NCBI GenBank assembly: GCA_045863855.1
Contig: BTVV01000024.1
Span: 1-64,000, forward strand
Direction of reading: 5' to 3'
Length of the DNA: 64,000 nucleotides
DNA from: Planctomycetota bacterium
GTDB lineage: Bacteria; Planctomycetota; SZUA-567; H5-PLA8
A program made the translations under genes and the position numbers. How positions within the stretch are numbered: the stretch's first letter is position 1; the number at the start of each line of letters is the position of its first letter. Positions 1 to 51,638 of this stretch are shown one piece after another. The notes below the pieces were generated by a model. It saw only the letters and a program-made list of their open reading frames with translations. It did no database searches and was not told where the DNA came from.

Positions 1-100
1 AATCCTTCCGGGTACACAAAAAAAAGTCCGGTAGCACGTTCGCGCGTGCGCGGGCCATTGGTTGTGCCAAGCCGTATTGCGCGCGCCGGGGAGCCTTATT

Positions 101-1486
101 GTGGCCGAATTGCGGGTTGCTTCGTGGCATGCCGTGCGCGAACGCCTGCAAGCAGCACTCAGTCCCGAGTCCTTCGACACGTGGTTTCAGCAGGTCGAGT
201 TGGTCGAGTGGGACGGGGAGTGCTTGAAGCTGGCGGTTCGAAATCGATACGTGAAGCAGTGGATCGAAGATCATTATCGTCGCGAGTTGCTTCGTGCGGC
301 GCGCGAGGTTGAGCCGGAGACGCGCAAGGTGGAACTGCACGTGCAACCCGCGGTGACCGAACGCAGCGCACAGGCCACGGCGATCGGCGGCATTCTTGAG
401 AATGTGATTCAGCCGCGCCCGCGCGACACTCGTGCGCCGGCCGAGGACGACCGCAGCGCGTTCGAGCGGGCGAGTTCCGGGACGGGCTGGCGCTTGGACG
501 ATTTCGTGCAGGGCGCATGCAACCGGCTGGCCTATTCGGCGGCCCGGTCGCTCGTCGATTCCCCCGCCACGGCGTATAACCCCCTCTTTTTGCACGGCGA
601 TCACGGCTTGGGCAAGACGCACCTGTTGCAGGGCCTCGAGAGGGCGCTGCGCATCGCGCGCCCGAACGCTAAGGTGAAGCTGCTCTCGTGCGAAGCCTTT
701 GCCAACGAGTATTTGCGCGCGGTGCAGGACCGCAAGATCGACCGCTTCCGCGAAACGTATCGTTCGAGCGACGTGCTGCTGGTGGACGATGTGCAGTTTT
801 TGGTCGGCAAAGAGAAGACGCAGGAAGAGTTCCTCTATACGTTCGACGCCTTGGTGAATGCCGGCAAGCAGGTGGTGCTGACGGCGGATCAGGCTCCGCG
901 GACGATCAAGGAACTCGACGCGCGGCTGCTGGCGCGATTCCAGTCGGGGCTGGTGGTTCGGCTGGACCGGCCGGACTACGAGACTCGGGTGGAGTTGATT
1001 CAGTCGAAGGCGGTGGCGCGACGGATGACCTTGCCGCTGGAGCTGGCCGAACTGCTGGCGATGCGGATCGACTTGAGCGTGCGCGAGTTGGAAGGCGCGG
1101 TCTGCAAGCTCTCGGCGCTGGCGGCGGCCGAAGGGCGGCTGCCCGACCGCGAGATGGCATCGCTGGCGCTGCGCGAATTAGGATACCTGCGCGAGGGTCC
1201 GCTTTCGCCGGCCGAGATTCTGGAAGCCGTGGCGCAGCGCATGAACTTTGAAGTCGACCAGATCCGCGGCGCGAAGCGGCATGCGGGTCTGGTGCAGGCG
1301 CGGCATCTGGCGATGTTTCTCTGCAAGCAGCTCACCTCGTACAGCCTCAGCGAAATCGGGCGTTTCTTCGGCAACCGCGATCACAGCACCGTCTTGCACG
1401 CCGTGCGCAAAATGGATCGGCAGTTTAAGAAGGATGAGGACATGCAGCGCGAAGTTCAGGCGCTGCGCCGCGGGCTGGGACGCTGA
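101..1486 (+). CDS. dnaA: Chromosomal replication initiator DnaA
   Basis: Domain I (FDTWF), YNPLFLHGDHGLGKTHL Walker A, DDVQF Walker B, RELEGA, domain IV RDHSTVLHA. GTG at 101 with GGGAG upstream is preferred over 62. Confidence 0.96.
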   Translation: MAELRVASWHAVRERLQAALSPESFDTWFQQVELVEWDGECLKLAVRNRYVKQWIEDHYRRELLRAAREVEPETRKVELHVQPAVTERSAQATAIGGILENVIQPRPRDTRAPAEDDRSAFERASSGTGWRLDDFVQGACNRLAYSAARSLVDSPATAYNPLFLHGDHGLGKTHLLQGLERALRIARPNAKVKLLSCEAFANEYLRAVQDRKIDRFRETYRSSDVLLVDDVQFLVGKEKTQEEFLYTFDALVNAGKQVVLTADQAPRTIKELDARLLARFQSGLVVRLDRPDYETRVELIQSKAVARRMTLPLELAELLAMRIDLSVRELEGAVCKLSALAAAEGRLPDREMASLALRELGYLREGPLSPAEILEAVAQRMNFEVDQIRGAKRHAGLVQARHLAMFLCKQLTSYSLSEIGRFFGNRDHSTVLHAVRKMDRQFKKDEDMQREVQALRRGLGR

Positions 1487-1524
1487 GCGCTACCTTATAA
1501 GGTAGGCGCGCATTCATCGGAACG

Positions 1525-1560
1525 AAAACAGGCCGCCCTCAAGGGCGGCCTGTTTTGTTT
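1525..1560. terminator. Bidirectional intrinsic terminator between dnaA and aminotransferase
   Basis: AAAACAGGCCGCCCT-CA-AGGGCGGCCTGTTTT inverted repeat with A/T tails, between convergent genes. Confidence 0.85.
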
Positions 1561-1581
1561 AATCCACTAACTACAAACGAG

Positions 1582-2745
1582 TTACAGAAGCACTTCCTTC
1601 GGCGCTTGGGCCAGGACGTCCTGCGCGGCGGCCAGTCCGGCGCCAAGCTTGACCCCGTACCCGTTGGCTTTCAGGCCCAGTTCCAACGCCGCGATGCCGC
1701 TGAGCGTATCCATCCCGCTGCAATAGCCCATGTGCGCGATACGGAACATCTTGCCTTTCATCTCGCCTTGGCCGTTGGCGAGGGTGACGCCGTAGCGGTC
1801 GCGGGCGGTCTTGATCACGGCGCTGCTGTCGAGTCCGCCGGGGCTCTTGACGACGGTGAGCACCTCGGCGGGGCTGTCGGGGAAGAGTTCGAGCCCCAGG
1901 GCTTTGACGGCGGCGCGGGTGGCTTGGGCCAGGACCGCGTGGCGCTTGTGGACGTTGTGGATGCCTTCTTCGACGAGCATGGCGAGGGCTTCGTTCTGCG
2001 CGTCGAAGAGCGTATTGGCCGGCGTGAACGGAGGATCGTTCTCGGGAAGTCCTTTGCGCGCGCGGAGCAGCGAAGAGTAATACGTGGGCGCGCCTTTGTT
2101 CGCTTCGACGACCTTCCAGGCGCGGGGGCTGACGGAGAGCATGGAGAGGCCGGGGGGCATCATCAGGCCCTTCTGGCTGCCGGCCATGAAGAGGTCGACG
2201 CCCCAGGCATCGACCGGACAGGCCATGCCGATGGCGCCGCTGATGCCGTCTACGCCGTAGAGCGCTTCGGGGTTGACCTTGCGCACGGCTTTCCCGATGT
2301 TCTCGATATCGTACTTCGCGCCGGTGCTGGTCTCGCAGAGGTGCAGGTAGACGGCCTGGACGGCCGGGTCTTTGGCGCGTTCGGCGACCTGTTCGGGCGT
2401 GGGGCTGCGGCCGTAGTCGAGCTTGAGTACATCGAGCCCGAGCTTGTACTGTTCGCAGATCTGGACGAGGCGTTCGCCCCACTTGCCGGCGCTGACGACG
2501 ACGGCTTTGCGTCCGGGGCTGACGACGTTGACGATCGCGGCCTCCATGGCGACGGTGCCGGAGCCGGTGAAGACGAGTACGTCGTTCTTCGTTTCGAAGA
2601 CCTGCTGGAGGCGCTGTCGGACCTGGGCGTAAATTTCGCGGAAGCGCGTGGAGCGGTGATACCAGGCTTGCTCCATCAGCTTGGCTCGCACGCGGTGCGG
2701 CACCTGGCTGGGTCCGGGGGTGAGCAGGATTTCCTTCAGCGCCAT
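1582..2745 (-). CDS. Class V PLP aminotransferase (serine-pyruvate/alanine-glyoxylate family)
   Basis: LLTPGPS, HRS, ETSTG, DGIS, GSQKGLMMPPGL (PLP Lys), FRIAHMG. Start at MALKEIL. Confidence 0.9.
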   Translation of the reverse strand: MALKEILLTPGPSQVPHRVRAKLMEQAWYHRSTRFREIYAQVRQRLQQVFETKNDVLVFTGSGTVAMEAAIVNVVSPGRKAVVVSAGKWGERLVQICEQYKLGLDVLKLDYGRSPTPEQVAERAKDPAVQAVYLHLCETSTGAKYDIENIGKAVRKVNPEALYGVDGISGAIGMACPVDAWGVDLFMAGSQKGLMMPPGLSMLSVSPRAWKVVEANKGAPTYYSSLLRARKGLPENDPPFTPANTLFDAQNEALAMLVEEGIHNVHKRHAVLAQATRAAVKALGLELFPDSPAEVLTVVKSPGGLDSSAVIKTARDRYGVTLANGQGEMKGKMFRIAHMGYCSGMDTLSGIAALELGLKANGYGVKLGAGLAAAQDVLAQAPKEVLL

Positions 2746-2947
2746 GGCGACATCGTCCTTTCTTGGGCCGAACGGGTTTGAAAAGCGAATCGGCTGAAGA
2801 CAGTTTACCCTCGCCCGGAAGGCCGAAAAGGACCGATGTCCGGCTGCGGATCGAATCGGCGCAAGGTGCGGTTCAAAAACCAAGGCGGGCCGAAGGGCGA
2901 AGGCAGGAACCCAAGGCGCGGCGCGAAATTCGGCTTCGCGAAGAGGC

Positions 2948-3640
2948 TTAATTCAGGCGCTTGGCGCACGCGTAAATATTACATCCGCTGGCGCGCAGAA
3001 ACCCGGCCAAGGTCACGTTAAAGCGTTCGGCTGTCTCCACGGCCAGGCTGGACGGCGCACCGACGGCCGCGACGACGGGGATGCCGGCCATCACGGCTTT
3101 CTGGAGCAGCTCGTAACTGGCCCGTCCGCTGACCAGGAGCACGCGGTCGCGCAGGGGGAGTTCGTCGCGCAAAAAGTGCGCGCCGATGAGCTTGTCGAGC
3201 GCGTTGTGCCGGCCGACGTCTTCGCGAAGGTCCAGCAGTTCGCCGGCGGCGGAGAAGAGCGCTGCGGCGTGGAGGCCGCCGGTGCGTTCGAAGACGGCTT
3301 GGGCGGCGCGGAGTCGTTCGGGCATGGCCTGGAGCCGTGCGGCGGAAAGCAGCGGTTCTTGCGGGACGGGGAGCGGTTCGGCGTGGATGGCCAGGGCTTC
3401 CAGCGAAGCCTTGCCGCAGACGCCGCAACTGGAGGTCGTGTAGAAGTTCCGCGACACGCGGACGAGGTCGCAGGCCACGCCCGCGCGAAGCGTGACGCGG
3501 ACGGCGTTCTTGAGCTGCGGTTCGGGCGTACCGTCGACGCAGTAGCTGACGTCGAGCACGTCGTCGCGGCGCTTGAGCAGCCCTTCGGTGAAGAGGAAGC
3601 CGGCGGCGAGTTCGAAGTCGTCGGCGGGCGTGCGCATGGT
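2948..3640 (-). pseudogene. fdhD: Formate dehydrogenase accessory sulfurtransferase FdhD, 5'-truncated
   Basis: TMRTP..DFELAAGFL, SSCGVCGK, TGGLHAA, EDVGRHNALDKLIG, APSSLAV are present. The usual N-terminal EEPLEIR segment is absent and similarity stops at ~3640; the upstream frame hits TGA at 3722-3724. Confidence 0.75.
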
Positions 3641-3696
3641 CGCCCGGGCTTGGAAGCCCGGGCCATCCCACACCCCCTTTAAGGAGGGCCGTACCC

Positions 3697-3912
3697 ATGG
3701 CCGTAACCGTTCGCCACGGCGTCAACACGCTCACGCTGGAGACGCTGGCCGGGAAGTCCGTTGCGCAGGTCCGCGAGGAGGTCGGCGGCCTCTTGAACGT
3801 CCCCGAGACGGCGCAGGTCCGCGTCAACGGGCTCCCGGCCGTCGACGGCCAGGGCGTCCCCGAGGGCGCCAGCGTCGAGTTCGTGAAGGTCGCCGGCGAG
3901 AAGGGCGCGTAG
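3697..3912 (+). CDS. Prokaryotic ubiquitin-like (beta-grasp) protein
   Basis: 71 aa, AAGGAGG RBS, ThiS/MoaD-like pattern VRVNG...VPEGASVEFVK, C-terminus AGEKGA, first gene of an E2/JAB/E1 operon. Confidence 0.8.
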   Translation: MAVTVRHGVNTLTLETLAGKSVAQVREEVGGLLNVPETAQVRVNGLPAVDGQGVPEGASVEFVKVAGEKGA

Positions 3913-3991
3913 CCCTCGGCCGGAGTCCACCCTAGGCGGCGCGCCCTGACCAACCCGGCTGGGGCGCGCCGCCATAAACCCAGGAGCCCCC

Positions 3992-4741
3992 ATGGCCACA
4001 TCAGACGAACGCCGGCGCATCGCCATCGAAGGCGGGCTGGTGCGCCTGGAACGGACAGTGATCGAACGCGAAGCCCGTACGGAAGACTTTCTGGCCGAGA
4101 TCGCGCGGATGCAGCCGGTGGATACCGGCGTCTTGCCCGAAGGCTGCATGCTCATGGCGCGGCGCTGCGACGCCCAGAAGCGCTGCTCGAACCTGTACGT
4201 GATCGAACGAGCTCCGGGCATGCAGCGGATTCACTTCAACGGCGATCCCGGCGCCGAAGACGACGCGGAAGACTCCAACGCTGCGCACGAAGTCGTGGAA
4301 CTGAACCTCTCCTGGCCGCGCACGCTCTGGATCTGCCGCACGAGCCAGGCCGCGGCGGAGGCGGCGATCGTCGTCACGGACTTGTGGGTCGTGGCCGTGA
4401 AGACCTCCGTGCGCGAGACCGAACGCAACACGCCGATATTCTGCCTGCCCATGCCGAACATCTACCACGAGGGCCACGGCGCCATCTGCATGGGCAATCT
4501 TTCCGTGGGCAATTGCGAGAACCCGCTGGCCGACCGGATCGACGCGGCCATCCACGGGGTTTTGGATTCGGCCTGGAACACGGACCTGATGCCGGAGTTC
4601 GAGCGCCTGGAGATCGCCAGCCTGGCCGACTGGGCCGAAAAGAGTGCCGCCGATCCGGCGTTCCACCGTCAGATCACCTATCAACCGCACCGCCAAGCCA
4701 CCTTGGGCGGACTCCTGCTGCACCTGGCCCCCAGCCCCTAA
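3992..4741 (+). CDS. Prokaryotic E2-like protein (Prok-E2 family D / PRTRC protein B-like)
   Basis: LSWPRTLW and PMPNIYHEGHGAICMGN match the E2 'P-x-PN-x-x..G-x-IC-x-G' catalytic Cys motif; AGGAG RBS; operon context. Confidence 0.72.
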   Translation: MATSDERRRIAIEGGLVRLERTVIEREARTEDFLAEIARMQPVDTGVLPEGCMLMARRCDAQKRCSNLYVIERAPGMQRIHFNGDPGAEDDAEDSNAAHEVVELNLSWPRTLWICRTSQAAAEAAIVVTDLWVVAVKTSVRETERNTPIFCLPMPNIYHEGHGAICMGNLSVGNCENPLADRIDAAIHGVLDSAWNTDLMPEFERLEIASLADWAEKSAADPAFHRQITYQPHRQATLGGLLLHLAPSP

Positions 4742-4761
4742 CCCAGAAAGGACCGCTACCC

Positions 4762-5094
4762 GTGAAGCCCTTCGATGCCGTGGAAGCCGCCCTTCGAAAC
4801 TGCCCGCCGTTCGAGAGCCGCTCGCTGGGCGATTTCCTGGGCGATCTGGTGACCGAAGATCTGGACGCCCTGGCGCAGCTGCCGGGATCGCCCGGACAGG
4901 TACTGGCCGCGCAGTTTACGTGCTACGCCCGCAGTTCCGTCCCGCTTAGCGAAGCGCTCCAGCAGCAGACCGAGCCTTTCTTAACCTTGCAGGACACGCT
5001 GGGGCGATTGTCCGCTCTGGGTGCTTTACCGGCCAAGCGCAGGAGGTCCGCGCGTGCAGATCCATCCGATTCCCAAGCCCGCTCCGGGCGCTGA
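4762..5094 (+). CDS. Hypothetical protein (110 aa) in Ubl operon
   Basis: GTG at 4762 with AAAGGA RBS, fills the gap between E2 and JAB; 3' end overlaps the JAB start. Confidence 0.55.
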   Translation: MKPFDAVEAALRNCPPFESRSLGDFLGDLVTEDLDALAQLPGSPGQVLAAQFTCYARSSVPLSEALQQQTEPFLTLQDTLGRLSALGALPAKRRRSARADPSDSQARSGR

Positions 5095-5902
5095 GCCGGA
5101 GTTGCCGAAAGAGCCGCTGTGTTACGTCGCCGGCGCCACGGGGTTGTTCAAGGTCATCCGAAATCCCTTCTACAGCGCTTGCGTCCCGGCCGGCGAAGTG
5201 GCCGGCTTGGCCGATCTGAAAGAAGGCGCCCAGTTGCACGTGCCCAAGCTGCCGCTGGAGCTGTTCCGCCGGATCGAGTCGTTCTTCGTGGCCGTCTTCC
5301 ACAAGTACGGCTCGGAGGCGGTGGTGCTCCTGTACTGCGATCCGGTGAAAGGCCGCTGGGAGGCGCTTGCGCCGCCGCAGACCGTGCGCGGTCTGCATGT
5401 CGAGTACGGCCTGGAGACGCTCCCCGAGCCACCGCCCGGGTATCAGCTCTTCGGGACCGTCCACAGCCATGCCAACGTGAATGCGTTCCATTCGGGGACC
5501 GACGACGAAGACGAAGCGCACTTCGACGGCTTGCACATCACCGTCGGGCACGTGGACAGGCCGCAGCGCAGCTACGCCTGCCGCTGGATGATCGCGGGCA
5601 AGGCGTTCAAGTCCGACCTTGACGACGTCGTCCGGCTTGAGGCGTTGCCGAAGGCCGAGGCGCAGTGGCTGGCGCAGGTCACCCAGGCGCGTCCGAAGCC
5701 GGCGCAAGCGCCGGCCTTCGCCGAGAGCCGATCGGGTGGGGGGCAGCCGTCGTTCTGGGAGGAAGCCCTGCCCGAAGAGTTCGAGACCCACGAAGAGTAT
5801 CTGCTTTACCTGGAGTCCTTGCGCGAGGACCTCGACGCGCGGATCTACGAGGCCGGACAGTACGAACCCCCCATCGGAGAACGCCATGCGGCCACACGCT
5901 GA
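5054..5902 (+). CDS. JAB/MPN+ metalloisopeptidase (PRTRC protein A-like)
   Basis: Glu in SEAVVLLY plus HSHANVNAFHSGTD = HxH-x7-SxxD JAMM motif; GTG 5054 with AGGAGG RBS. Confidence 0.88.
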   Translation: MQIHPIPKPAPGAEPELPKEPLCYVAGATGLFKVIRNPFYSACVPAGEVAGLADLKEGAQLHVPKLPLELFRRIESFFVAVFHKYGSEAVVLLYCDPVKGRWEALAPPQTVRGLHVEYGLETLPEPPPGYQLFGTVHSHANVNAFHSGTDDEDEAHFDGLHITVGHVDRPQRSYACRWMIAGKAFKSDLDDVVRLEALPKAEAQWLAQVTQARPKPAQAPAFAESRSGGGQPSFWEEALPEEFETHEEYLLYLESLREDLDARIYEAGQYEPPIGERHAATR

Positions 5903-6608
5903 ACGGATTACTTTGGTCGGTTGCGGCGGGATTGGGAGCTGGTTTTTGGCCCCGCTGCTGCGCTTCCTGAACGCCGAGCGCTATGCCGGCGAGATTCATC
6001 TCTGGGACGGCGATCGCTATGCCGAAAGCAACGCCCAGCGCCAGGAGTTCGCCTTCGAGCGCCTGGGCGCAAACAAGGCGCAGGTCCAGGCTGAGTGCTT
6101 CCTGACCCATTATCCGGCTCTGCGGCTCTATGCGCATCCCGAGTACGTCGCCGACCGAACGGTGGCCGACGCAGTACGCGATCGCACGATCGTGCTGGTG
6201 GCGGTGGATAACCACCCCGCTCGGCGCCGGATCGCGTTGCAGGCCGAACGGCTACGCGACGTATGCGTACTCTCGGCCGGGAACGAACGCCTCGACGGGA
6301 ACGTACATGTCACCTGGCGCCGAGGCGGGCGCGATTTGACCGTGCCGCTTTTGGCCCGGCATCCCGACGTCGCACGCAGCCAGGCCGGCGACCGAGCCGA
6401 GGCCGGCTGCGAAGACCTGATCGAACAGGGCGAGACCCAGCTTCTGGTGACCAACTTCATGGCCGCCGCGGGGCTCTTAGCCGCGTTTCATGCGCTCTGG
6501 ACTCACGGCGAGCGCCACGGCCGGCGGAAGAACTCGGTCGTGCCGCAGGAGCTTTACTTCGACGCGGGAGCCTGCGCGATGGCGCTGGTTCCCGCCGCAC
6601 CACGTTAG
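5886..6608 (+). CDS. ThiF/E1-family adenylyltransferase
   Basis: VGCGGIG, DGDRYAESNAQRQ, GANKA, VDNHPAR, candidate catalytic Cys in AGCEDL; no CxxC zinc pairs. Confidence 0.9.
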   Translation: MRPHAERITLVGCGGIGSWFLAPLLRFLNAERYAGEIHLWDGDRYAESNAQRQEFAFERLGANKAQVQAECFLTHYPALRLYAHPEYVADRTVADAVRDRTIVLVAVDNHPARRRIALQAERLRDVCVLSAGNERLDGNVHVTWRRGGRDLTVPLLARHPDVARSQAGDRAEAGCEDLIEQGETQLLVTNFMAAAGLLAAFHALWTHGERHGRRKNSVVPQELYFDAGACAMALVPAAPR

Positions 6609-6616
6609 GAGAGCCA

Positions 6617-7363
6617 ATGCCGATCTTCGTCCTGCATGCGGCCCACGTGCTTCAGGCCGCCCATAACTCCAGTACGCAGGTGATCCTCCCACTTACCGCC
6701 ACGGACTCGAGGGACAACTACTCGATGGACGAAGGCGACGGCCTGTGGATCCCCGAATACGTCGCATGGATGGAACAGATCGTCCGGCGCATGACCGGAT
6801 CGCCTTCGTTTGCCTTCTCGAACGATCGGGAACTGGAGGACGATTTGTTCTATGACGTGCCCGTCGCCCATCTGCGTGGGCTGTTAATCGAGTTCACCAA
6901 CCGTGTCTACCCGGGTTGGCGCGATCGAATCGATCTGCCCGACTACGACGACGTGCGTGAGGGCTGCCGCGGTTACTGCGACGGCTGCGACAGCGCGTAC
7001 CGGACTATCTACGGCACCTACGACGGGCCTCTGGCCGAGGACGTCGAAGAGGACGAGGACGCGGACGAAGCGAATCTGGACCCACAAGAGCGCGAAGCGC
7101 GCATTCATCGCAACGCCGCGCGTTCTGTTGAGCGGATGCAACTTCAAGCCGACCAGGAAGCCGCCGAAGACGAGGTGGTCGATTCCGAATGGGTTTGCGA
7201 CACCGACTGCGATCCGTTCCTGGATCATGTAATCGAATCGTTCCGCGAACGTATGGAGTGCGACACCGACCGGCTCGACTCGGAGTGGGACGCGTTTACG
7301 AAAGAACGGGGCATCCGGATCTTCCCGCCGCTCTTGGTTTCGTTGGCCCGCGCCTCAGCCTAG
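6617..7363 (+). CDS. Hypothetical acidic, Cys-containing protein
   Basis: ATG 6617 with AGGAGA RBS, 8 nt after E1 stop; Asp/Glu-rich; CRGYCDGC and CDTDC. Confidence 0.7.
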   Translation: MPIFVLHAAHVLQAAHNSSTQVILPLTATDSRDNYSMDEGDGLWIPEYVAWMEQIVRRMTGSPSFAFSNDRELEDDLFYDVPVAHLRGLLIEFTNRVYPGWRDRIDLPDYDDVREGCRGYCDGCDSAYRTIYGTYDGPLAEDVEEDEDADEANLDPQEREARIHRNAARSVERMQLQADQEAAEDEVVDSEWVCDTDCDPFLDHVIESFRERMECDTDRLDSEWDAFTKERGIRIFPPLLVSLARASA

Positions 7364-7453
7364 GGATGCGTCCGCAAAAAAAGTCCACGCCTTTCACGCT
7401 CCCCACGTTCCTGGGGAATCCCGCTTTTCCAACCCTTGAACCCGGAGCAGCCC

Positions 7454-8464
7454 ATGACCACGAACCTGTCGTTAGGCACGGTGTTTTTCCTGGACGGGCT
7501 CGTGCCCGTCACCACCGACCGCGTCCGTTCAAGCCTGGAGGCCTCGGGACTCGATCCGCAGATGGCCCGCGACCTAGCCAAGCGCTTCTGCTTCTCGCGG
7601 GCCAAGAACAAGCTCCGCGACGAGGGGCTGATCGACGAAGTCGGCGAGACCGATACGCGCTGGACCTGGCAGCTCTCGCGGCGCTACCGCGAAGAGAACC
7701 GCCTGGGCTACGAGTTCGAAGCCGCGTTTTGGTTCGATAAGGCGAACCAGTCCGTGGGCGCCGACAACGCGGTGCTCCTGGAGAAGGTCCAAGCGCTCTT
7801 CGCCCAGTACGGCGCTCTGTACCTGGCCGGGGACATCACCAAGGTCGTACGCCGGATCTTCGAAGCCCAGAAAGGGATGGTGAAGCTGCGCCACGCCGGC
7901 GCGATCTACTTCGTGCCGCGGGAGAACCGCGCCCTCATGGATAAGGTCGCGGCCTTCGTGCGCGATCTGGGCGGGCAGTGCGTAACCGTCCCCGTGGGGG
8001 CCGAGAATACCATGGTCCGCGATAAGGCCTTGGAGATGCTCGTCGAGGCCGTGCGCGGCGATCTTGGCAGGGTAGTCGGCGAGATGAAGGCCTTGGAGGC
8101 CCAAGGCGAAGCGCTCACCCCGCGCAAGGCCAAGAACCGTTGGCAGGAACTGGCCGCGCAACTCGATCGAATCAAGCTCTTCGCGCGGAGCCTCTCGACC
8201 GATGCCACAGGGCTCTTGGGGCAGGTCCGGGATTCTGAGTTGGACCTGGCGTTGGTGGCCCAGGCCGACCTGGACGTGATCGCGGCGTTGGCGCACGCCG
8301 GCAAGGTGGGCGGGGCGCTCTCCCAGATCGTCCGCCATGCCTACGCAGGGGAACTCCCGCCGATCCGCTCGGCGCGGGTGCGCGCCGCCCGCGTGGTGCT
8401 GGAAGGCCCGGAGACGATCCAGTTGCCCGTGGTCGCGGGCCGAGCGCCCGCGCTGGAAGCGTAA
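7454..8464 (+). CDS. DUF6744-like hypothetical protein
   Basis: GGAG RBS; pattern LG.V.F...L...GLDP...FSRA and LRHAGAIYFVP followed by helical C-terminus, recalled from DUF6744. Confidence 0.55.
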   Translation: MTTNLSLGTVFFLDGLVPVTTDRVRSSLEASGLDPQMARDLAKRFCFSRAKNKLRDEGLIDEVGETDTRWTWQLSRRYREENRLGYEFEAAFWFDKANQSVGADNAVLLEKVQALFAQYGALYLAGDITKVVRRIFEAQKGMVKLRHAGAIYFVPRENRALMDKVAAFVRDLGGQCVTVPVGAENTMVRDKALEMLVEAVRGDLGRVVGEMKALEAQGEALTPRKAKNRWQELAAQLDRIKLFARSLSTDATGLLGQVRDSELDLALVAQADLDVIAALAHAGKVGGALSQIVRHAYAGELPPIRSARVRAARVVLEGPETIQLPVVAGRAPALEA

Positions 8465-8529
8465 GTACCTACCGTGTCGCTCACCGCGAGCGCGCTTACT
8501 TCCCCGATCCCTGAACAGGAGGCTTGTAC

Positions 8530-10089
8530 ATGCAGGCCATGACCGTACTGCTCGCCGCCCTCAAAGCACGCCTGCCGGGCGTGCATTTACGCACCCTCGA
8601 AGAGGCTCGTGCCCTGGAAGCCCTGCGACAGGCCGTGCAGGCCCTGTCGAGCCAACTGGCGCCGCGGGTGCTATGGCGCTGGTCTTCGGCCTCAGGGCTG
8701 CATCACCTTCCGCCCAGCGACGATCTGCCCAGCATGCCCGTCCAGGAACCCTGCGCCCTAGACGACGCCTTTACGCACTTCAAGAAGTCCTCTGAAAATA
8801 TCGTCCTGGCGTTGCTCGATCCGTGGGCCGAACTGGGCAACCCGTATTTCGTGCGCGCGTTACGCGAAGCGCTGACGCACGCGCGGGGCTCCGGGAAGGC
8901 GATTGTGCTGGTCGGGCGCGATTGGAAGATCCCGCCCGAACTCCAGGCCGATCTGTTCGTTGCGAACTTGCCGCTGCCCACGCGGGCCGAACTCAACGAG
9001 TTCATCCAGTCCCTGGCAGTCCTGTACCGCGCGCAGCTGGCCGACAAAGTCAGCATCGACGAAGCGGCGCTGCCCGAGTTGGCCCGCGCCTGCCAGGGGC
9101 TCACGCTTGACGAGACGCGCAGCATCGTAGCCCTTTCGTTGGTCAGCTACCGGGCCTTGGGCGCCGATTCGATCGGGTTGGCCATTCGCGAAAAGCGCCA
9201 GATCGTACGTCGAAGCGGAGTGCTGGAATACGAAGAGCCCCAGCGCGATCTGGCTGGGGTGGGGGGGCTGGAACTCCTGAAGGGCTGGGTCACCAAACGC
9301 CGGCGGCTCTTCGAAGACAACGCCCGGGCTGCGGGAATCCATGCGCCTAAGGGGCTGCTCTTGGTGGGCGTCCCCGGTACGGGCAAGACGCTGGCGGCGC
9401 GCGCCATCGCCGCGGCCTGGAAACTCCCGCTGGTCCGGCTCGATGCCGGGCGGCTCTTCGGGAGCTTGGTCGGTGAGTCCGAGAGCAATCTGCGCCAAGC
9501 GATCCGGACGGCCGAGGCCATCGCGCCGTGCGTGGTTCTGGTCGACGAGATCGAGAAGGCCTTCGCCCAAGGCGGAGGGCAGGACGGCGGGACTTCGCAA
9601 CGGGTCTTCGGCGCCCTACTGACTTGGCTTTCCGATAAGCAGGCCGAGTGCTTCGTGGTGGCGACCGCCAACGAGATCGGCGTATTACCACCGGAGTTGT
9701 TACGCAAAGGTCGCTTCGACGAGATCTTCGCCGTGGACTTGCCCGACGCGGCGGCGCGCGAGGAGATCCTGCGCATTCACCTGGAGCAGGCCAAGGCCTC
9801 CTTTAAGAAGAGCGAGCTTGCCGACCTGGCCGGCGCCTGTTCGGGCTACACCGGCGCCGAACTGGAAGCGGCGGTCCAAGCGGCCTTGGTCGAGGCCTTC
9901 GACGACGGCGAACGCAAGGTCCGGCCGGCCGACGTACTCCAGGCCATCCGGAACACCGTGCCGCTCTCGCGGACCATGGCCGAAAAGATCGACGCCCTGC
10001 GCGAGTGGTGCCGCAGCGGACGGGCCGTGCCCGCCGGACGCCCGATCGAAGCCGACGATGCCAGGAAGCAGGTGACCGTTGAGGTTTAG
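8530..10089 (+). CDS. AAA+ ATPase, Ycf46/SpoVK/Vps4-type
   Basis: AGGAGG RBS; degenerate N-terminal AAA domain; [59 protein letters not shown]. Confidence 0.92.
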
Positions 10090-10628
10090 GTGTCCTTCTT
10101 GAACTCATCCCAATGTGGGTTCAGCCATACGCATCTATTGGCTACGCTCTGAAGATCCGACGAGACGGACCGCTCGAAGCCAGCCACGTAGACCTCTTTC
10201 TTCAGGTCGTCCTTTACGTAGGAAACCGCATCCATCAGGTCACCGTCTCCGGACGAAAGCAGCACCCGATCGTACTTATCCTGCGCGGCCAGTTTGATCA
10301 GGAGCGTTGCGATGCCCACGTCCACTCCCTTCTGGACAGGACGCTCGTGTTCCTTTCCGCAAGCCGGGCAGGTGAGGCGCTGAGTCTTCAAGGCGTAAGG
10401 CAGCACCCGGAATTGCGGGCCTGTGGGGCTGGCCAGCTTGAGCCAGCGCAGGAAGGCGTCCTGCTTCTCGTTGGGCTCCGGCGACTTACTGTCCAGAAAG
10501 TAGCTCTCGATAAATCGACCGTCGCCGGGGCCTTCGAGCAGGTGCTTGAGCTTCAGATAATCGAACCGCCCGGGAGCGCAAGCATGCATGTAGCCGCCGT
10601 CGATGATCCAGATCACGCGCTTGGCCAT
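10086..10628 (-). CDS. NYN domain (LabA/DUF88, PIN-like) nuclease with CxxC insert
   Basis: IDGGY, CPACG, QKGVDV, SGDGDL, S.DL...A motifs. Confidence 0.88.
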   Translation of the reverse strand: MAKRVIWIIDGGYMHACAPGRFDYLKLKHLLEGPGDGRFIESYFLDSKSPEPNEKQDAFLRWLKLASPTGPQFRVLPYALKTQRLTCPACGKEHERPVQKGVDVGIATLLIKLAAQDKYDRVLLSSGDGDLMDAVSYVKDDLKKEVYVAGFERSVSSDLQSVANRCVWLNPHWDEFKKDT

Positions 10629-10743
10629 CGAAGCCCTCGTCCGTATTCCCAAGTGAGTTGCCTGCTGAAAGGAAGACACGACTTATACCGCATTGTTTCC
10701 GCGCCGAAGTGGGCGAACGCACCCCCCGTATCCGGAGAACCCC

Positions 10744-11103
10744 ATGAGCCACATCGCCACCGTGAAAGTGAAGCTGAAAGACCGTGCCTTGCTCGCCGAA
10801 GTCTGCGGCGAACTGAATATTCCCTGCGACCTCGGAGAGCCGGACGTCCGGCTCTACTCGGGCGTCGTCAAAAGCGCCGCCAGCGTCCAGCTCAAAGGCT
10901 GGACCTACCCCGTCGCGGTCCTGCACGACGGCACCGTCCAGTACGACAACTTCGAGGGCCAGTGGGGCGCGACGCGCGAGTTGCATGCGCTCTTGCGCCG
11001 CTACTCCGAGCGGGTCGCCTTGCGCCACGCCCAGCGCCTGGGCGCCAGTGTCCAGCGCGAAGAGCGCGCCGACGGGACGATCCTGCTGCGCCTGCGCGCC
11101 TGA
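10744..11103 (+). CDS. DUF1257 (Ycf35-like) protein
   Basis: MSHIATVKVKLKD..LL, GW.YPV, YDNFEGQWG, LLRRYS, E.ADGTI.L; canonical Ycf46 partner. Confidence 0.82.
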   Translation: MSHIATVKVKLKDRALLAEVCGELNIPCDLGEPDVRLYSGVVKSAASVQLKGWTYPVAVLHDGTVQYDNFEGQWGATRELHALLRRYSERVALRHAQRLGASVQREERADGTILLRLRA

Positions 11104-11138
11104 GTCGAAGTCCCACCCATCGCAAAGGAGCCCGCCAC

Positions 11139-11333
11139 ATGCCGCGCCAGATCGTTGTGACCATCTCGCCCGAAGGCGAAATCGAAGTGCGGGTCGAAGG
11201 CCAGTCCGGACCGTCCTGCCAGGATCTCACCCGCAAGCTTGAAGACGCGCTCGGGACCGCCGTGGCCGACCGGCGCACGCCCGAGTTCCACCAGCCCGAC
11301 CGGCAGGATCACCGCCAGCAGACCGGGCGCTGA
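11139..11333 (+). CDS. DUF2997 protein
   Basis: I.VTISPEGEI.V.VEG..GPSC.DLT..LEDALG......TPEF; AAGGAG RBS. Confidence 0.85.
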   Translation: MPRQIVVTISPEGEIEVRVEGQSGPSCQDLTRKLEDALGTAVADRRTPEFHQPDRQDHRQQTGR

Positions 11334-11352
11334 ACATGGAAAGGAGCTTCTG

Positions 11353-11607
11353 ATGGATGCTTTGATCGCCGTGCGCCCGGACGGGCAGGTGGAGTTTCTG
11401 TACGACGATGCGCTCGGCGCGCTCCTGCTCGAAGGCGAAGGCCGTGTCCTGCGCGCCTCGCACGTCGAACCTACTTCCGACGGCCGCTGGCAAGCGGATC
11501 TTGCACCTATTGGCGGGCCGAAGCTGCCGGCTACACGTACTCGCGGCGCCTCGACTCAAGCGGAGATCGTATGGATCGAGCGAAATCGGTTGACCGAATG
11601 CCCGTAG
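11353..11607 (+). CDS. Conserved hypothetical protein following DUF2997
   Basis: AAGGAG RBS; RASHVEP...GRWQADL.P.GGP.L....R.....AE..W pattern recalled from similar planctomycete clusters. Confidence 0.7.
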   Translation: MDALIAVRPDGQVEFLYDDALGALLLEGEGRVLRASHVEPTSDGRWQADLAPIGGPKLPATRTRGASTQAEIVWIERNRLTECP

Positions 11608-11630
11608 TTTCGGGTTCATCGAAAGACATC

Positions 11631-11673
11631 GCGCCGGTGCCGGGCCTCGCAGCTCGGTACCGGTGTTTTTCTT
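11631..11673 (+). terminator. Intrinsic terminator closing the AAA-DUF1257-DUF2997 operon
   Basis: 14-bp stem CGCCGGTGCCGGGC/GCTCGGTACCGGTG (with G-U pairs), 6-nt loop, then TTTTTCTT. Confidence 0.75.
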
Positions 11674-11768
11674 AGCTATGGGCTCGGAAAAAGGTGGAAT
11701 CGATGACGCCGGCGCTCAAGAAAATGAGTTCACAACCAAAGGACCCTAATTGCAATTACCTTTTAGGG

Positions 11769-11790
11769 TGTTACAAAACGCTGTTACAAA
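11769..11790 (+). repeat. Direct repeat TGTTACAAA x2, candidate integrase arm-type sites
   Basis: Copies at 11769-11777 and 11782-11790 in an AT-rich stretch ~55 bp before the tRNA fragment. Confidence 0.55.
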
Positions 11791-11845
11791 CTCACTTGAC
11801 GTTTTTATAAACTATTATACCAAAACAACTTAATTTTTAGTAACG

Positions 11846-11890
11846 TGCCTTACAAGCAGGGGGTCGGGGGTTCGAATCCCTCATCGCCCA
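11846..11890 (+). other. 3' half of tRNA-Val(TAC), candidate att site (not an intact tRNA)
   Basis: TGC-CTTACAA-GCAGG anticodon arm, GGGTC, GGGGG-TTCGAAT-CCCTC T arm, ATCGCCCA acceptor 3' strand; D arm and 5' acceptor strand absent. Confidence 0.88.
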
Positions 11891-11946
11891 CTATACCCCT
11901 TCGCCATGCCTGCTCGATGCCGCGTGCGTAAGCCCCAATCGTTCGA

Positions 11947-16516: not shown

Positions 16517-17437
16517 ATGGCTTACGCTTCGAACCTACCCCCGCCGCTCGAATACCTTCCGTTTAGCGCCGCACCTTTTCGGCTCACGCTGGGTTTGACG
16601 GCACTGCGCCTGGAAGACTGGATCGAGATCGATGCGCATTATCCCCGTGACCTGAATCTAAAGCGCGAACTGCTCGCTCAACGCCACGGCGAAGTCTTTG
16701 CCGCCCTGCCCGGCAGCGCTGAACCCAGCCGGGAAGCGCTGGAACTGCTGGCGCGGCATCTGACGGAGCGCTTTCCGGGCTGGTTCGAGCGGCGCGACGG
16801 CGTCCTCGAGAACAAGCTCACCGGAGAATGCTGGAATCTGACAGGAGATGCGCACCATCCCTTGGACTTGGCCGCGCGCTGGGTCCAGGAGGATCTGTGT
16901 CTTATGCAGGCGCGAGGATCGGAGTACGTCCTCACCGCAGCGTCCGTCGCCTTTCCCTCGCGCTGGGCCTTAAAGGAAAAGCTGGGCCTTCCGATGCAGG
17001 CCATTCATGCGCCGGTCGCGCACTATAAGGAGCAGCTGGGCGAGACGGCCGATCGGTTCATGGAGCGGCTGAGCGCCGATAAACCGGTCTGGCGGCTGAA
17101 CTGGAATGTTCACGACAGCGGCGAACCTTTTCAGCCGCGCGGACCCGGAGGCGTCGCACCCGATCCGCGGATCACTCCGGCAAACGCCGGCCAGAAACTC
17201 TTTTTTCGAGTCGAGCGTCAAACGCTGCGCCGCTTGCCGGACAGCGGTGCGATCGTGTTTACGATTCGAACCTACATTCGGCCTCTTGCCGATTTCGAGC
17301 AGCGCCCGGAATGCGCCGCGCGCTTGGCCGCCGCGCTACGCAACTACCCGCCCGAAACCTTTCGATACAAGAACCAAGGCGTTTTTGCCGACGCGGCGCT
17401 GGCTTGGCTGGATCGAACCGCCCGGTCATGCAGTTAA
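16517..17437 (+). CDS. Heme-dependent oxidative N-demethylase alpha subunit-like (DUF3445)
   Basis: VQEDLCLM, FPSRW...EKLG..M..IHAPV, R.NW, RVERQTLRRLP.SGA.VFTIRTY. Confidence 0.85.
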   Translation: MAYASNLPPPLEYLPFSAAPFRLTLGLTALRLEDWIEIDAHYPRDLNLKRELLAQRHGEVFAALPGSAEPSREALELLARHLTERFPGWFERRDGVLENKLTGECWNLTGDAHHPLDLAARWVQEDLCLMQARGSEYVLTAASVAFPSRWALKEKLGLPMQAIHAPVAHYKEQLGETADRFMERLSADKPVWRLNWNVHDSGEPFQPRGPGGVAPDPRITPANAGQKLFFRVERQTLRRLPDSGAIVFTIRTYIRPLADFEQRPECAARLAAALRNYPPETFRYKNQGVFADAALAWLDRTARSCS

Positions 17438-47663: not shown

Positions 47664-48128
47664 ATGACCAACCCATCCAAGCCCAAGACGGCCCAGTCGC
47701 TCAAGCGCATGGACAACGTCCTGATCGTGGTCGAAGACCTGGAGGCCGTGAAGGTATTCTTCCTCGAACTGGGCCTCACACTGGAAGGCGAAACGACGGT
47801 CGAAGGCCCCATGGTCGGCCAACTGATCGGGCTCGCGGACGTCCGGGCCACCCTCGCCATGCTGCGGACGCCCGACGGGCAGGGCGTCGAACTGGATAAG
47901 TTCCACACCCCCCACGCTGTCCGATTCGGTCCCGTGGACGCACCGGTGAACACGCTGGGCATCCGCCGCCTCATGTTCGCCGTCGATGACCTCGACGCGG
48001 TCGTCGCGCATATGCTCGCCCACGGGGCCAAGCTCATCGGCGAAATGAAGTACGAAGACAGCTATCGCTTGGCCTACCTGCGCGGGCCTGAGGGCATCAT
48101 CGTCGGTCTGGCCGAGCAACTTAAGTAA
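47664..48128 (+). CDS. VOC/glyoxalase family protein
   Basis: RMDNV.IVVEDL...FF.ELG, TPDG..VEL..F, GIRR.MFAVDD, RGPEGIIV.LAE. Confidence 0.9.
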   Translation: MTNPSKPKTAQSLKRMDNVLIVVEDLEAVKVFFLELGLTLEGETTVEGPMVGQLIGLADVRATLAMLRTPDGQGVELDKFHTPHAVRFGPVDAPVNTLGIRRLMFAVDDLDAVVAHMLAHGAKLIGEMKYEDSYRLAYLRGPEGIIVGLAEQLK

Positions 48129-48461
48129 CGCCTTGGAACGGGTGGCGCGGGAGCCGGTGCCACGGAGCAAGCGTGGTTGGCTTGCTCCGTGCCGAACCCA
48201 TCACGCACGCTCAAGCCGCCGCCCACTCATCAGTTGGCAAGGTTATGCCGTGGCATGCCTCGAACGGTCAGCGCGGCAGGGAACAAGTATACGGTGCTGG
48301 CTCCTTGTCGTCCGCCGCGACAGCCATCAATGGTCCGTCCCAGACACCCGCCCAATCGCTGATTCTGTTGAACTAGACAGCCAATCTGAGTATGCAGTAT
48401 TGAATTACATCTTGGGAATTACAATTAAATGTTTTGCGTCTGAATGTGACAGGGGATTGCC

Positions 48462-49061
48462 TTGACAGCACCAAATCGAGCACGTTTACGCCCATGCCGG
48501 GTTCCATGGTTAATCTGTCCGACTATGGGATCTGTAACGCTGAACCATACCGAAACAGACACTCGGCCGGAATGTAAAGTTGTAGTTGGCGCAATGCGAT
48601 TTTTAGTTGATGGCAAAATTGATATGAGTCGAGTCGAAATAACTTTCGAAGGGTGTTGGCATGCACGTACTGCACCCAAGCGGGATGATTATGGGCTTGA
48701 GGCAGAGGGTTTTGACCTTGTGCAGAAAAGTCCACGAGGTGTTGAACGGCTCAAGTGGTATTGGGATCAATGGAGAGCTGATGGCTACTGTCCAATCTCG
48801 GGATTTTGGGTCGCGGTTGAGTCTCGATGGTTGGTAGAGTTCTTACCCGACAAAGCCACTCACTATGTAATACAAGGCCGTAACGGTTTCGTGGAGTTGA
48901 TTGCCAAAACATTCTCTTGGAGAGAGTGGCCGTGGATTTCTGGTCATAGGGATGAACTATTGGAGTTTCGGCCAGTCGTTTCCAGTGGTACCGGGGAGCT
49001 ACCAATCGCGGTCAAACAAGATACGCAAGCTGAACCGCCCCCAGGAGCGAGTGACCGGTAG
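48462..49061 (+). CDS. Hypothetical protein (lower GC)
   Basis: 199-aa ORF with atypical codon usage; start uncertain. Confidence 0.5.
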   Translation: MTAPNRARLRPCRVPWLICPTMGSVTLNHTETDTRPECKVVVGAMRFLVDGKIDMSRVEITFEGCWHARTAPKRDDYGLEAEGFDLVQKSPRGVERLKWYWDQWRADGYCPISGFWVAVESRWLVEFLPDKATHYVIQGRNGFVELIAKTFSWREWPWISGHRDELLEFRPVVSSGTGELPIAVKQDTQAEPPPGASDR

Positions 49062-49252
49062 ATGGATGGCTAATTGTGCCTAATGGTACCAAGCATAAGG
49101 AGGTGCGCATGCGGCACAGAGGCTAAGCGTAAGCCTTGCGCCGTTGAGCACGGGCAGCAAACGGCCGCAGCGCAAGGGCGCCAAGTCCTCGGTAAGATAC
49201 ACATTCAAGTGCGGAGTCAGGCGGCTAGCGCTACCATTCGGGAAGGATTCTT

Positions 49253-49963
49253 ATGCAGACGCCAGAATGGATCGCTCGCTGTATACCTGCCCACGAGGCG
49301 GTGTTAGACCTTGGCGTGCTCGTTTGGGACTCGTGGTACGTCGGCCCTGAAAACGACTTCTCGAAAGAAAAGTGGAAGGAGTTGCGGACGCCCCTATACA
49401 GGCCGCAGGTTGCCCATCGCGACATTCGTAAGCAATGCAAATCCCTCGATAGTTGGATGCCTGACATTCAATATATTTCTATAGCAACTGCAACCCCAAG
49501 CGATCTCGAAGAGGTTCGGCGTTATTGTTCCGATCTGCTCCGGATTATGGCTGCGCATGGACAACAGATTCGCACATCTAACACGCAATTTCACCTCAGG
49601 CTAGCAGTTTTTGTTTCCGACGACCTTTCTATCGATTGGCCTTGGGATTGGACTTGGAACGAGATTCAAAATGTACTGAACGCGCTCGCATCCCCAATGC
49701 CGATTATCGGGATCGTTTATAACGAATTGGAGCAAGGGTGGCGGGTAGAGATATTCGCGTCGCAGACGAACTTATTCATGCGTGAAAGCGACTACGACAC
49801 CGGTGAAGAGCGCCGGCTGATCGCGTGCAATCGAGAATCAATCGTACAGCAAGCTTCCCGACTAAAAGCCGGTATTCCGGCCAAGCTGGTTCTTCTCGAA
49901 GAGGGCTTGAATCAACAGGGTCTGTTTGGATGTCAAGCCACAGGTAGCCCACATAAACCGTAG
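49253..49963 (+). CDS. Hypothetical protein (lower GC)
   Basis: 236-aa ORF, GAAGGA RBS. Confidence 0.55.
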   Translation: MQTPEWIARCIPAHEAVLDLGVLVWDSWYVGPENDFSKEKWKELRTPLYRPQVAHRDIRKQCKSLDSWMPDIQYISIATATPSDLEEVRRYCSDLLRIMAAHGQQIRTSNTQFHLRLAVFVSDDLSIDWPWDWTWNEIQNVLNALASPMPIIGIVYNELEQGWRVEIFASQTNLFMRESDYDTGEERRLIACNRESIVQQASRLKAGIPAKLVLLEEGLNQQGLFGCQATGSPHKP

Positions 49964-50025
49964 ATTGTTGTGGCTGCCTAAAGCAAAAGAGGCGCTCCTT
50001 GAGCTATGCTCTTACAGGATTTGTC

Positions 50026-50544
50026 ATGGCTCAGATCCCTTTGGACATCCGGCCCCTCGCGCCTGAAGACTGGGACGCGTTGGGCGAGGCCTACCGGGCC
50101 GCTTCTCTAGTGGAAATGAAGCTCAGCGGGCGCGATCCCGCGTCGTTCAAATCCCTCTCCGAGGAAGAAGATCCGGAGAAGTTTGCGCTCACGAGTTCCG
50201 CGATCGTAGCTTGGGTGGATGGACGGCGGGTAGGCTTCGCGGCTTGGCGGGATCGCGGGGCATGGAAAGGCGGCGGTTACCTGTCCTTCCTATATGTACA
50301 TCCCGACTGGCACCGCAGAGGCATCGGCGATCAACTCCTTAAGAGAGCCCTGGAAGCCCTGGGGCCGCAAGCTTGGACGCTCACGCCCGCCGGGAACCTG
50401 CCGGCCATCAAGCTGTACCAAAAGCACGGCATGCAGATCGTGAAGGCCCCGGCTCCGGGCAACACCCACGGCAATGTTCGGCTGGCGTTGCCCACGAGCC
50501 GGAAATCAGATCCTAGCGTGCCGGACTTTGGGATTGGAACGTAA
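50026..50544 (+). CDS. GNAT family N-acetyltransferase
   Basis: LYVHPDWHRRGIG, N.PA..LYQKHG. Confidence 0.88.
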   Translation: MAQIPLDIRPLAPEDWDALGEAYRAASLVEMKLSGRDPASFKSLSEEEDPEKFALTSSAIVAWVDGRRVGFAAWRDRGAWKGGGYLSFLYVHPDWHRRGIGDQLLKRALEALGPQAWTLTPAGNLPAIKLYQKHGMQIVKAPAPGNTHGNVRLALPTSRKSDPSVPDFGIGT

Positions 50545-50699
50545 GGGCGTGGAAAGGGTACAAGAAGCGTTTCTCAATGGAGCCTCAGCGGATACGCTGG
50601 CTTCGAATGGGTCTAGCCGCTTTGGAACGCAAGCTTAACCACACCAACATTGGGTTTGTGTGTACTACCCGAGTATAGGCAAGCAACCGAAACTAAAAT

Positions 50700-51167: not shown

Positions 51168-51233
51168 AGTGACAGCTGGGTTGGATTTCAGCAGGATGAA
51201 TAAGGCTGCACTTTCAAACTCGGAGGAGATGCT

Positions 51234-51584: not shown

Positions 51585-51638
51585 TACGATCCAGGCTTGT
51601 ATGGGTATTATGCCGTCATTCACCCCCAAGGACTTCCC

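Follow-up and report, generated by a model that had tools for sequence, protein, structure and literature searches.

When a bacterial ubiquitin-like conjugation set lies next to an AAA+ module of the Ycf46 type, do the two form one pathway, or are they separate functions carried side by side? The question is raised by a block of genes in a 64,000-nucleotide stretch of DNA from a Planctomycetota bacterium (assembly GCA_045863855.1, contig BTVV01000024.1, positions 1 to 64,000), hereafter the window. A first, sequence-only reading had proposed that eleven genes of this block constitute a new system in which modified targets are handled by the AAA+ protein. The explanation that we favor, and regard as probable though well short of certain, is that a temperate, phage-like integrative element of one planctomycete family carries the block as accessory cargo and that the block is made of two separable modules. 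The first would be a conjugation set resembling PRTRC and type 6d cassettes and the second an AAA-DUF1257-DUF2997 set, their biochemistry being presumed from the protein families. The block comprises the following features, for which E-values are given after the matching models.

3642-3663, plus strand: palindromic hairpin, read from the sequence, within the 57-base leader ahead of the Ubl gene
3697-3912, plus strand: ubiquitin-like protein (Ubl), 71 residues; C-terminus ...AGEKG followed by one Ala; no Pfam match
3992-4741, plus strand: E2-like protein, 249 residues; invariant Cys166; Prok-E2_D 5.7e-5, PRTRC_B 0.0037; 12-sequence alignment
4762-5094, plus strand: orf110, 110 residues, conserved; tblastn relatives at loci L001, L002 and L004; no family match
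5054-5902, plus strand: JAB/JAMM peptidase, 282 residues; extra N-terminal domain; Prok-JAB 4.4e-5, PRTRC_A 1.7e-7
5886-6608, plus strand: ThiF-type E1, 240 residues; GxGxxG and Cys175; ThiF 8.7e-18, PRTRC_ThiF 1e-15
6617-7363, plus strand: acidic Cys protein, 248 residues; conserved CxxC...CxxxC; no recognized fold
7454-8464, plus strand: DUF6744-family protein, 336 residues; PF20529 5.4e-6
8530-10089, plus strand: AAA+ ATPase, 519 residues; AAA 8.2e-33, phrog_8638 7.1e-137 over the full length
10086-10628, minus strand: NYN-domain gene, 180 residues; NYN 9.6e-13, HEC-09 1.1e-13; in L001, not in L002 or L047
10744-11103, plus strand: DUF1257-like protein, 119 residues; transitive BLASTP 6e-10, no direct Pfam match
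11139-11333, plus strand: DUF2997 protein, 64 residues; PF11211 3.6e-15, phrog_23133 3.1e-10
11353-11607, plus strand: orf84, 84 residues, conserved; no Pfam match
11631-11676, plus strand: intrinsic terminator, stem followed by a T run
11843-11893, plus strand: 3' half of tRNA-Val(TAC), a remnant resembling an attachment site; G066, a same-genus relative, has the complete gene at the corresponding position

The 12 proteins of the block were searched against the Pfam, NCBIfam and PADLOC profiles, and PHROGs was also used. Pfam returned no match for the Ubl, orf110, the acidic Cys protein, the DUF1257-like protein or orf84. The gene identities first assigned hold through Pfam and NCBIfam matches and, for the DUF1257-like protein, through its BLASTP alignment with the gene following a related planctomycete AAA gene, the latter matching PF06868 (1.6e-23). 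Cassette neighbors are separated by -41 to +90 bases, the NYN stretch excepted, and the single closing terminator was confirmed as a 15-pair stem at 11631-11666. The description of the block as eleven co-oriented, closely spaced genes was accurate as to place but overlooked a twelfth gene, encoding the NYN-domain protein, which interrupts the series. This gene is convergent with the AAA gene, lies between it and the DUF1257 gene, and has a stop codon that overlaps the AAA stop. Since it is on the minus strand, the gene run of the window is neither uninterrupted nor fully co-oriented. It is present in L001, from the same genus, and absent from L002 and from contig C125 of genome G091, which belong to two other genera and in which the AAA and DUF1257 genes are separated by 31 and 69 bases, respectively. 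By this distribution, the NYN gene is a lineage-specific insertion of the window's genus.

The relatives of the carrier share a backbone consisting of a conserved open reading frame (ORF), a PD-(D/E)XK exonuclease (phrog_69), a small ORF, an ATP-dependent ligase (phrog_114) and a Zn-ribbon ORF, after which come the cargo, AlpA, a tyrosine integrase and a tRNA gene. In L001, the block is flanked by the PD-(D/E)XK exonuclease, a WGR-ligase and the Zn-ribbon ORF on one side and by AlpA, the integrase and tRNA-Leu on the other. In L002, a large terminase gene is located upstream (phrog_675, 1.1e-50). The window's own assembly (G000) harbors a related second element beside tRNA-Leu(CAA) at positions ~10000-25400 of contig C83. 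This element has the same backbone and an empty cargo slot, nothing being found between the Zn-ribbon ORF and AlpA. The conserved backbone and the empty slot indicate that the block occupies, as variable cargo, the integrase-proximal slot of a family of prophage-like elements. Judged by these neighbors, the carrier of the block is a prophage-like integrative element at tRNA sites, and carriage on a mobile island, as originally proposed, is upheld by the backbone, AlpA, integrase, terminase and tRNA sites.

Comparison of the relatives also revealed how the two halves of the block are distributed. Three planctomycete genomes from two genera (the window, L001 and L002) have all eleven plus-strand genes in colinear order. 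L001 contains all twelve genes and is 90% identical to the window at the DNA level over 3640-11528 only, with unrelated flanks; L002 contains the eleven plus-strand genes without NYN, and its proteins are 47-77% identical to those of the window. The halves also occur apart within the same element family. L004 harbors the genes from Ubl to the Cys protein; a HEPN-SNF2 helicase gene comes next, and the AAA module is absent. G091, from a third genus of the same family, harbors two DUF6744-AAA copies, each located after a ligase gene end and a small Zn-ribbon ORF. In the copy on C125, DUF6744-AAA is followed by DUF1257, DUF2997 and orf84, and no E2 or Cys-protein match was found anywhere in this 93%-complete assembly. 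The AAA half was thus present in three of the four informative Ubl-side loci, L004 being the exception (loci cut by contig ends, L003/L050, L005 and G268:C99, are left out of this count), and the Ubl half in three of the five loci of the cassette-type AAA clade, the exceptions being the two G091 copies.

The same modularity was observed in viral contigs. A cassette-type JAB was present in 46 of the 48 viral E1 loci, a Ubl in four and an E2 in five. None of these 48 loci, 36 of which are at least 10 kb in length, contained AAA, DUF1257, DUF2997, DUF6744, Cys-protein or orf84 genes. In the closest viral relative, L133 (a 192-kb contig with an E1 44% identical to that of the window), the Ubl, E2, JAB and E1 genes follow the order of the window and none of the window's genes was found downstream of E1. 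The viral AAA census retained 80 loci, in which DUF1257 and DUF2997 were called with home-made hidden Markov models. DUF2997 was found in 32 loci, DUF1257 in 22, either in 33 and both in 21, always on the AAA strand. ThiF genes were detected by jackhmmer in four of these 80 loci, a figure that comes with no background rate and for which no enrichment is claimed. One obligate system is thus not supported in the form proposed: the halves are apart in L004 and G091, and each is a common stand-alone phage module. The linkage of the two sets itself was found as proposed, colinear in the window, L001 and L002 and again on one viral contig, L077, but it was absent from the viral E1 loci and, for ThiF, rare in the viral AAA loci.

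The best-surviving alternative is a single tag-and-remodel pathway, in which an AAA+ hexamer would recognize Ubl-tagged targets and extract or unfold them, the role of adaptors being taken by DUF6744, DUF1257, DUF2997 and perhaps the Cys4 protein. The Ubl system would then be functionally wired to the Ycf46-family AAA+ protein, the Ubl or the marked proteins being handed on via DUF6744, DUF1257 and DUF2997. We hold this to be possible but rather unlikely. Several observations speak for it and so weigh against the explanation by two separable modules. The tight colinearity of the eleven one-strand genes in three genomes and the similar divergence of both halves fit co-inheritance as one unit. 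In addition, the 181-kb viral contig L077 encodes a very divergent AAA protein (37% identity to that of the window) in the order E2-like, JAB, PRTRC-like ThiF, two ORFs, AAA, DUF2997 and DUF1257, which we read as the order of the window. The 386-residue ORF at the E2 position can be aligned by hhalign to the catalytic motif of E2 (E 7.7e-4, probability 25%), the 354-residue JAMM protein was recognized by BLASTP (3e-5), and the second-best NCBIfam match of the ThiF protein is PRTRC_ThiF (8.9e-19). The 169-residue ORF upstream is not detectably a Ubl. The join of both halves, as read from these gene orders, is recurrent, occurring in three planctomycete genomes and one viral contig, and the arrangement on L077 would not easily be explained by chance stacking. 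It is this syntenic recurrence that keeps the one-pathway model alive at the strength just given; if the model were correct, the pairing would be ancient, kept both in planctomycete prophages and in an unrelated jumbo-phage-like contig. Looser co-location was observed in three further loci, in which JAB and ThiF lie within 10 kb of the AAA gene and on its strand: 6-8 kb upstream in L075 and L078 and, as Prok-E2_E and a JAB-ThiF fusion, 3 kb downstream in L105. Finally, the phage-like nature of the carrier appears from few marker genes.

The two ORFs located between ThiF and AAA on L077 were considered as candidates for the Cys protein and DUF6744; hhalign showed no relation. In L105 (10001-19337), Prok-E2_E and the JAB-ThiF fusion adjoin a DnaJ/beta-helix protein, and in L075 (437-3669), JAB, a 91-residue ORF and ThiF are located beside a YydG-like radical SAM gene.

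The ATPase itself provides arguments in both directions. It belongs to the classic clade (Pfam AAA plus AAA_lid_3), has intact Walker A and B motifs, and has CDC48, PAN and FtsH as its best NCBIfam matches (1e-34 to 1e-36), as a one-pathway model would have it. Ubiquitin with Cdc48/p97 and Pup with Mpa are tag-and-unfold systems, and the proposed logic is the same, combining a small protein tag and a classic-clade AAA+ motor. In contrast to these systems, the block of the window lacks a protease partner, and its pore loop 1 is aliphatic. This loop reads S-L-V-G, with Leu at the pore-loop column in 25 of 28 family members, whereas threading AAA motors mostly have an aromatic residue at this position. 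The single pathway is also disfavored by the separability of the halves within the same element family, by the viral counts given above and by the NYN insertion, which breaks the transcription unit in the window's genus. Furthermore, the AAA-DUF1257-DUF2997 trio is mostly linked with radical SAM genes instead. Among 26 wider planctomycete AAA loci (same-strand ORFs only, within 1.5 kb on either side), both DUF1257 and DUF2997 follow AAA in 10, and a radical SAM gene is found upstream of the three genes in eight of these 10.

Within the explanation by two separable modules, the first module can be compared with known conjugation cassettes. Type 6d operons, as presented in excerpts of Iyer, Burroughs and Aravind (2006; PMC1779556), are Ubl/E2/JAB/E1 sets characterized by a Ubl with a C-terminal Gly, an E2 with a Cys and a downstream His, and a JAB protein with Arg and Trp in its N-terminal domain. 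The same excerpts mention a rapidly diverging alpha-helical protein with conserved charged residues. The first five genes of the window correspond to this description, and the Ubl, E2 and JAB traits are all present. The Ubl is small, presumably beta-grasp-like, and has the conserved C-terminal glycine. The motif GEKG is present in all five sequences, with 1-5 residues behind it (A, A, AA, AA and AEANA), and in three of four viral relatives KG forms the very C-terminus. The shared GEKG, the variable tails and the viral ends at KG form the pattern of a conjugatable Ubl whose tail is removed by a peptidase. In the E2-like protein, Cys166 is invariant in 12 of 12 sequences in the context G-x-x-C-x-G-N and is followed by conserved His residues (alignment A1), among which H225 and H233 are at least 90% conserved, the sole exception being a truncated sequence. 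The JAB protein retains HxHx7Sx2D and an upstream Glu, as well as an Arg (LFRR) and a Trp (RWEA) in the N-terminal part before the JAMM motif, in four of four sequences for each, a small sample. Both proteins fall slightly short of the Pfam cut-off of 25 bits (23.3 for E2 against Prok-E2_D and 23.8 for JAB against Prok-JAB). The E1 keeps GxGxxG, the Asp and Asn positions and Cys175 (alignment A6), the latter residue being also invariant in three divergent phage ThiF proteins. Orf110, conserved in four loci (the window, L001, L002 and L004), may correspond to the 'novel alpha-helical protein' of type 6d.

The sixth protein of this half, the acidic Cys protein, contains two pairs of cysteines separated by a variable acidic insert. 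The first pair, C121 and C124, is invariant and the second, C194 and C198, at least 90% conserved, and the protein probably binds zinc. The family has 47 representatives in a library of 1.84 billion sequences. The AlphaFold2 model has a predicted local distance difference test score of 90.2, and the whole model matched none of the solved structures searched (best Foldseek E 1.8, VIA Z 5.7). A radical-SAM-like CX3CX2C motif was considered and rejected: across the wider family its first Cys varies, and only CxxC...CxxxC is kept. The E2-like family is rare, with 12 members among 5.8 billion clustered proteins and four loci in three of 185,579 species genomes, plus one short metagenome contig. No close relative was found among IMG/VR viral contigs for the E2 alignment or for the DUF6744-like protein, nor was the latter matched by tblastn in 50,697 phage records. 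The Cys-protein alignment held no stretch conserved enough for IMG/VR scanning.

With PRTRC cassettes, which were compared through NCBIfam models including TIGR03735-03737, the set shares carriage by a mobile element and the best NCBIfam matches of JAB, E2 and E1, which are PRTRC A, B and ThiF, respectively. The cut-offs of the PRTRC models (TIGR03734-03742) were not reached, however, with scores of 31 against 101.8 for A, 16.6 against 131.45 for B and 57.8 against 144.75 for ThiF. Pfam and NCBIfam revealed no ParB match among the 12 proteins, NCBIfam gave no match to PRTRC C, D, E or F at E ≤ 0.1 for the Ubl, orf110, the Cys protein, the DUF6744-like protein or orf84, and profile searches found no CD-NTase in the block. 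The sequence-only reading was therefore right that hallmarks of PRTRC, Bil and CBASS are missing. Relative to type 6d and PRTRC, the window adds, downstream, the Cys4 protein and the DUF6744-AAA-DUF1257-DUF2997-orf84 series, and its host context is a planctomycete prophage-like element. Bil, Bub and CBASS Cap2/Cap3 likewise combine E1, E2, Ubl and a JAB-type peptidase and are conjugating or predicted to be so, according to part of the text of PMC11601603. They differ from the window in that its E1 and E2 are separate small proteins and its carriers are phage-like elements rather than a host defense island. In the literature searched, subscription papers being outside it, no description of the combination of the Ubl set with the AAA module was found, nor any function for PRTRC, 6d-type cassettes, DUF6744 or the DUF1257/DUF2997 pair. 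Within that literature the combination appears to be new; its first five genes correspond to the described type 6d.

The second module is centered on the AAA+ protein, which has a family-specific N-terminal domain of ~240 residues and relatives 40-45% identical across 93-100% of its length. Some database sources label these relatives 'SpoVK/Ycf46/Vps4 family', and the name Ycf46 is used here after these labels. The window AAA+ belongs to a small clade with at least 77% identity within it and at most 44% identity to the rest. The family sharing the N-terminal domain comprises 7,597 proteins at E ≤ 1e-20 among 7,999 scored candidates. It was found in 122 of 401 planctomycete genomes (as against three of 401 for the Cys-protein family), in 59 phage records and at least 408 IMG/VR stretches, and on 700 PLSDB plasmids, of which 583 are typed as conjugative. 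A relative with 32% identity over residues 66-497, as in the IncC plasmid pKPHS3 (L038), is common on Enterobacterales plasmids typed as conjugative, where the adjoining genes lack annotation. The neighbors of AAA relatives in phage JP1, the Corndog mycobacteriophage and the IncC plasmid were considered as DUF6744, DUF1257 or DUF2997 proteins, without support from Pfam or PHROGs.

The DUF6744-like protein scores slightly below the PF20529 cut-off (26.0 against 27 bits), and 14 of its 22 homologues carry PF20529. Its predicted structure superimposes on the Atlas DUF6744 cluster, which is 75% viral, with TM scores of 0.72 and 0.79. Fold searches with the whole model gave a best Foldseek E-value of 0.038 (PaaX) and, by VIA, helical hairpins only (Z of 8.7 or less). 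The AAA module resembles the Ycf46 cluster described in an excerpt of PMC4284462, with an AAA protein of ~500 residues that has its own N-terminal domain, followed by DUF1257 and DUF2997. It differs in having a DUF6744 gene before AAA instead of the usual radical SAM gene. The same excerpt reports the DUF1257/DUF2997 pair of cyanobacteria beside a ferredoxin gene. An apparently conserved cluster of four genes, with radical SAM directly upstream of AAA-DUF1257-DUF2997, was observed in other planctomycetes at L010, L012, L013, L014, L016, L027, L028 and L030.

A mechanism compatible with two separable modules can be proposed from the conserved residues. The JAB peptidase would trim the one-residue tail of the Ubl, exposing Gly70. 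The ThiF-type E1 would adenylate the Ubl and take it onto Cys175, from which the E2-like protein would receive it on Cys166 for transfer to amines of the targets. Roles as helpers or specificity factors may fall to orf110 and the Cys4 acidic protein, and JAB could also reverse the Ubl mark. The phage-type AAA+ protein (phrog_8638, Ycf46-like architecture) would most likely be a hexameric remodeling motor, for which the small partners DUF1257, DUF2997, DUF6744 and orf84 may serve as adaptors or regulators. Both modules probably serve the element in infection or lysogeny, through host takeover, counter-defense or the exclusion of rival phages. Gene content, motifs, mobility, modularity and distribution were observed directly; the biological role and every biochemical step above are inferred.

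A related possibility is that the block is a prophage-borne anti-phage island, in which Bil-like Ubl tagging of invader parts and a separate Iet-like AAA protein would be stacked in a hotspot. PADLOC matches of the AAA protein to IetA (4.6e-30) and of the NYN protein to HEC-09, the HEPN-SNF2 gene after the Ubl half in L004 and the variable cargo slot adjoining the integrase are in agreement with this proposal. However, the IetA match covers the generic ATPase core only (residues 263-494) and the IetS partner is absent. PADLOC had no match for the Ubl, E2, JAB, the Cys protein or DUF6744, and its E1 matches were confined to the ThiF portion of E1-E2 fusion models (best 1.2e-9). Both modules are also common in viral contigs, which fits phage functions at least equally well, and we regard a defense island as improbable. 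A sulfur-carrier or cofactor pathway of the ThiS/MoaD type in place of protein conjugation, suggested by E1 matches to ThiF and MoeB models (1e-10 to 1e-12), is very unlikely, since the Ubl and E1 are accompanied by an E2-like protein with an invariant Cys and by a JAMM peptidase, the Ubl has a removable tail after Gly, and Pfam and NCBIfam revealed no adjacent thiamine or molybdopterin genes.

PRTRC/6d-type cassettes and AAA-DUF1257-DUF2997 sets are both common modules of phages or mobile elements, for which conserved residues are now defined, and their natural fusions in three planctomycete genomes and one viral contig allow a functional link to be tested directly. If the link is true, viruses of bacteria would possess ubiquitin-style targeting to an AAA+ machine, a viral, prokaryotic counterpart of ubiquitin-Cdc48, and the locus would offer a first way into the function of the Ycf46/Ycf35 module, so far unexplained, of cyanobacteria and plastids. 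If it is false, the locus still offers a compact and complete phage Ubl set (Ubl, E1, E2, JAB and two putative helpers) for biochemistry.

The junctions of the block with the remainder of the window were analyzed by comparison with other contigs. The parts of the window corresponding to 1-3640, the cassette and 11843 onward lie far apart in a same-genus genome, and similarity to the same-genus cassette copy begins at 3640. In the window's assembly, contig C251 is a 98% match to the L001 element backbone and ends 13 bases into the left end of the cassette, and the first 20 bases of contig C146 overlap 3622-3641 and lead into the native 5' portion of fdhD, an arrangement also found in the relative. 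Two independent runs yielded contigs over the first cassette bases, and these cease to match the window at 3640 and 3642 and continue with unlike sequence. For the probable source run, the pieces listed end at 3589 and begin at 3645. The assembly and run contigs indicate that the join of the 5'-truncated fdhD to the cassette is probably chimeric or else a minor variant; the element backbone is likely to be what truly adjoins the cassette on its left.

The right side is supported by single contigs from runs of three studies (10393-11890, 10677-11875 and 10757-11846), which cross the terminator and reach or enter the tRNA-Val(TAC) 3' half next to the AT-rich right end of the cassette. ARAGORN did not find an intact tRNA-Val(TAC) in the 287-contig assembly. 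From 11528, the 3' end of orf84 and the terminator resemble a paralogue beside tRNA-Val in the same-genus relative (76% identity). Stand-alone paralogues of orf84 were found on contig C175 of G000 (54-293, 51% identity) and in L051 (12105-12338, 74%), the latter adjoining tRNA-Val in a same-genus genome and followed by a similar terminator.

Elsewhere in the window, ARAGORN called a tRNA-Gly(TCC) on the minus strand at 17251-17344, which is unusually long (94 bases). The G+C content of 48001-52000 is 0.53-0.57, against ~0.65 elsewhere, and this region may be another foreign segment.

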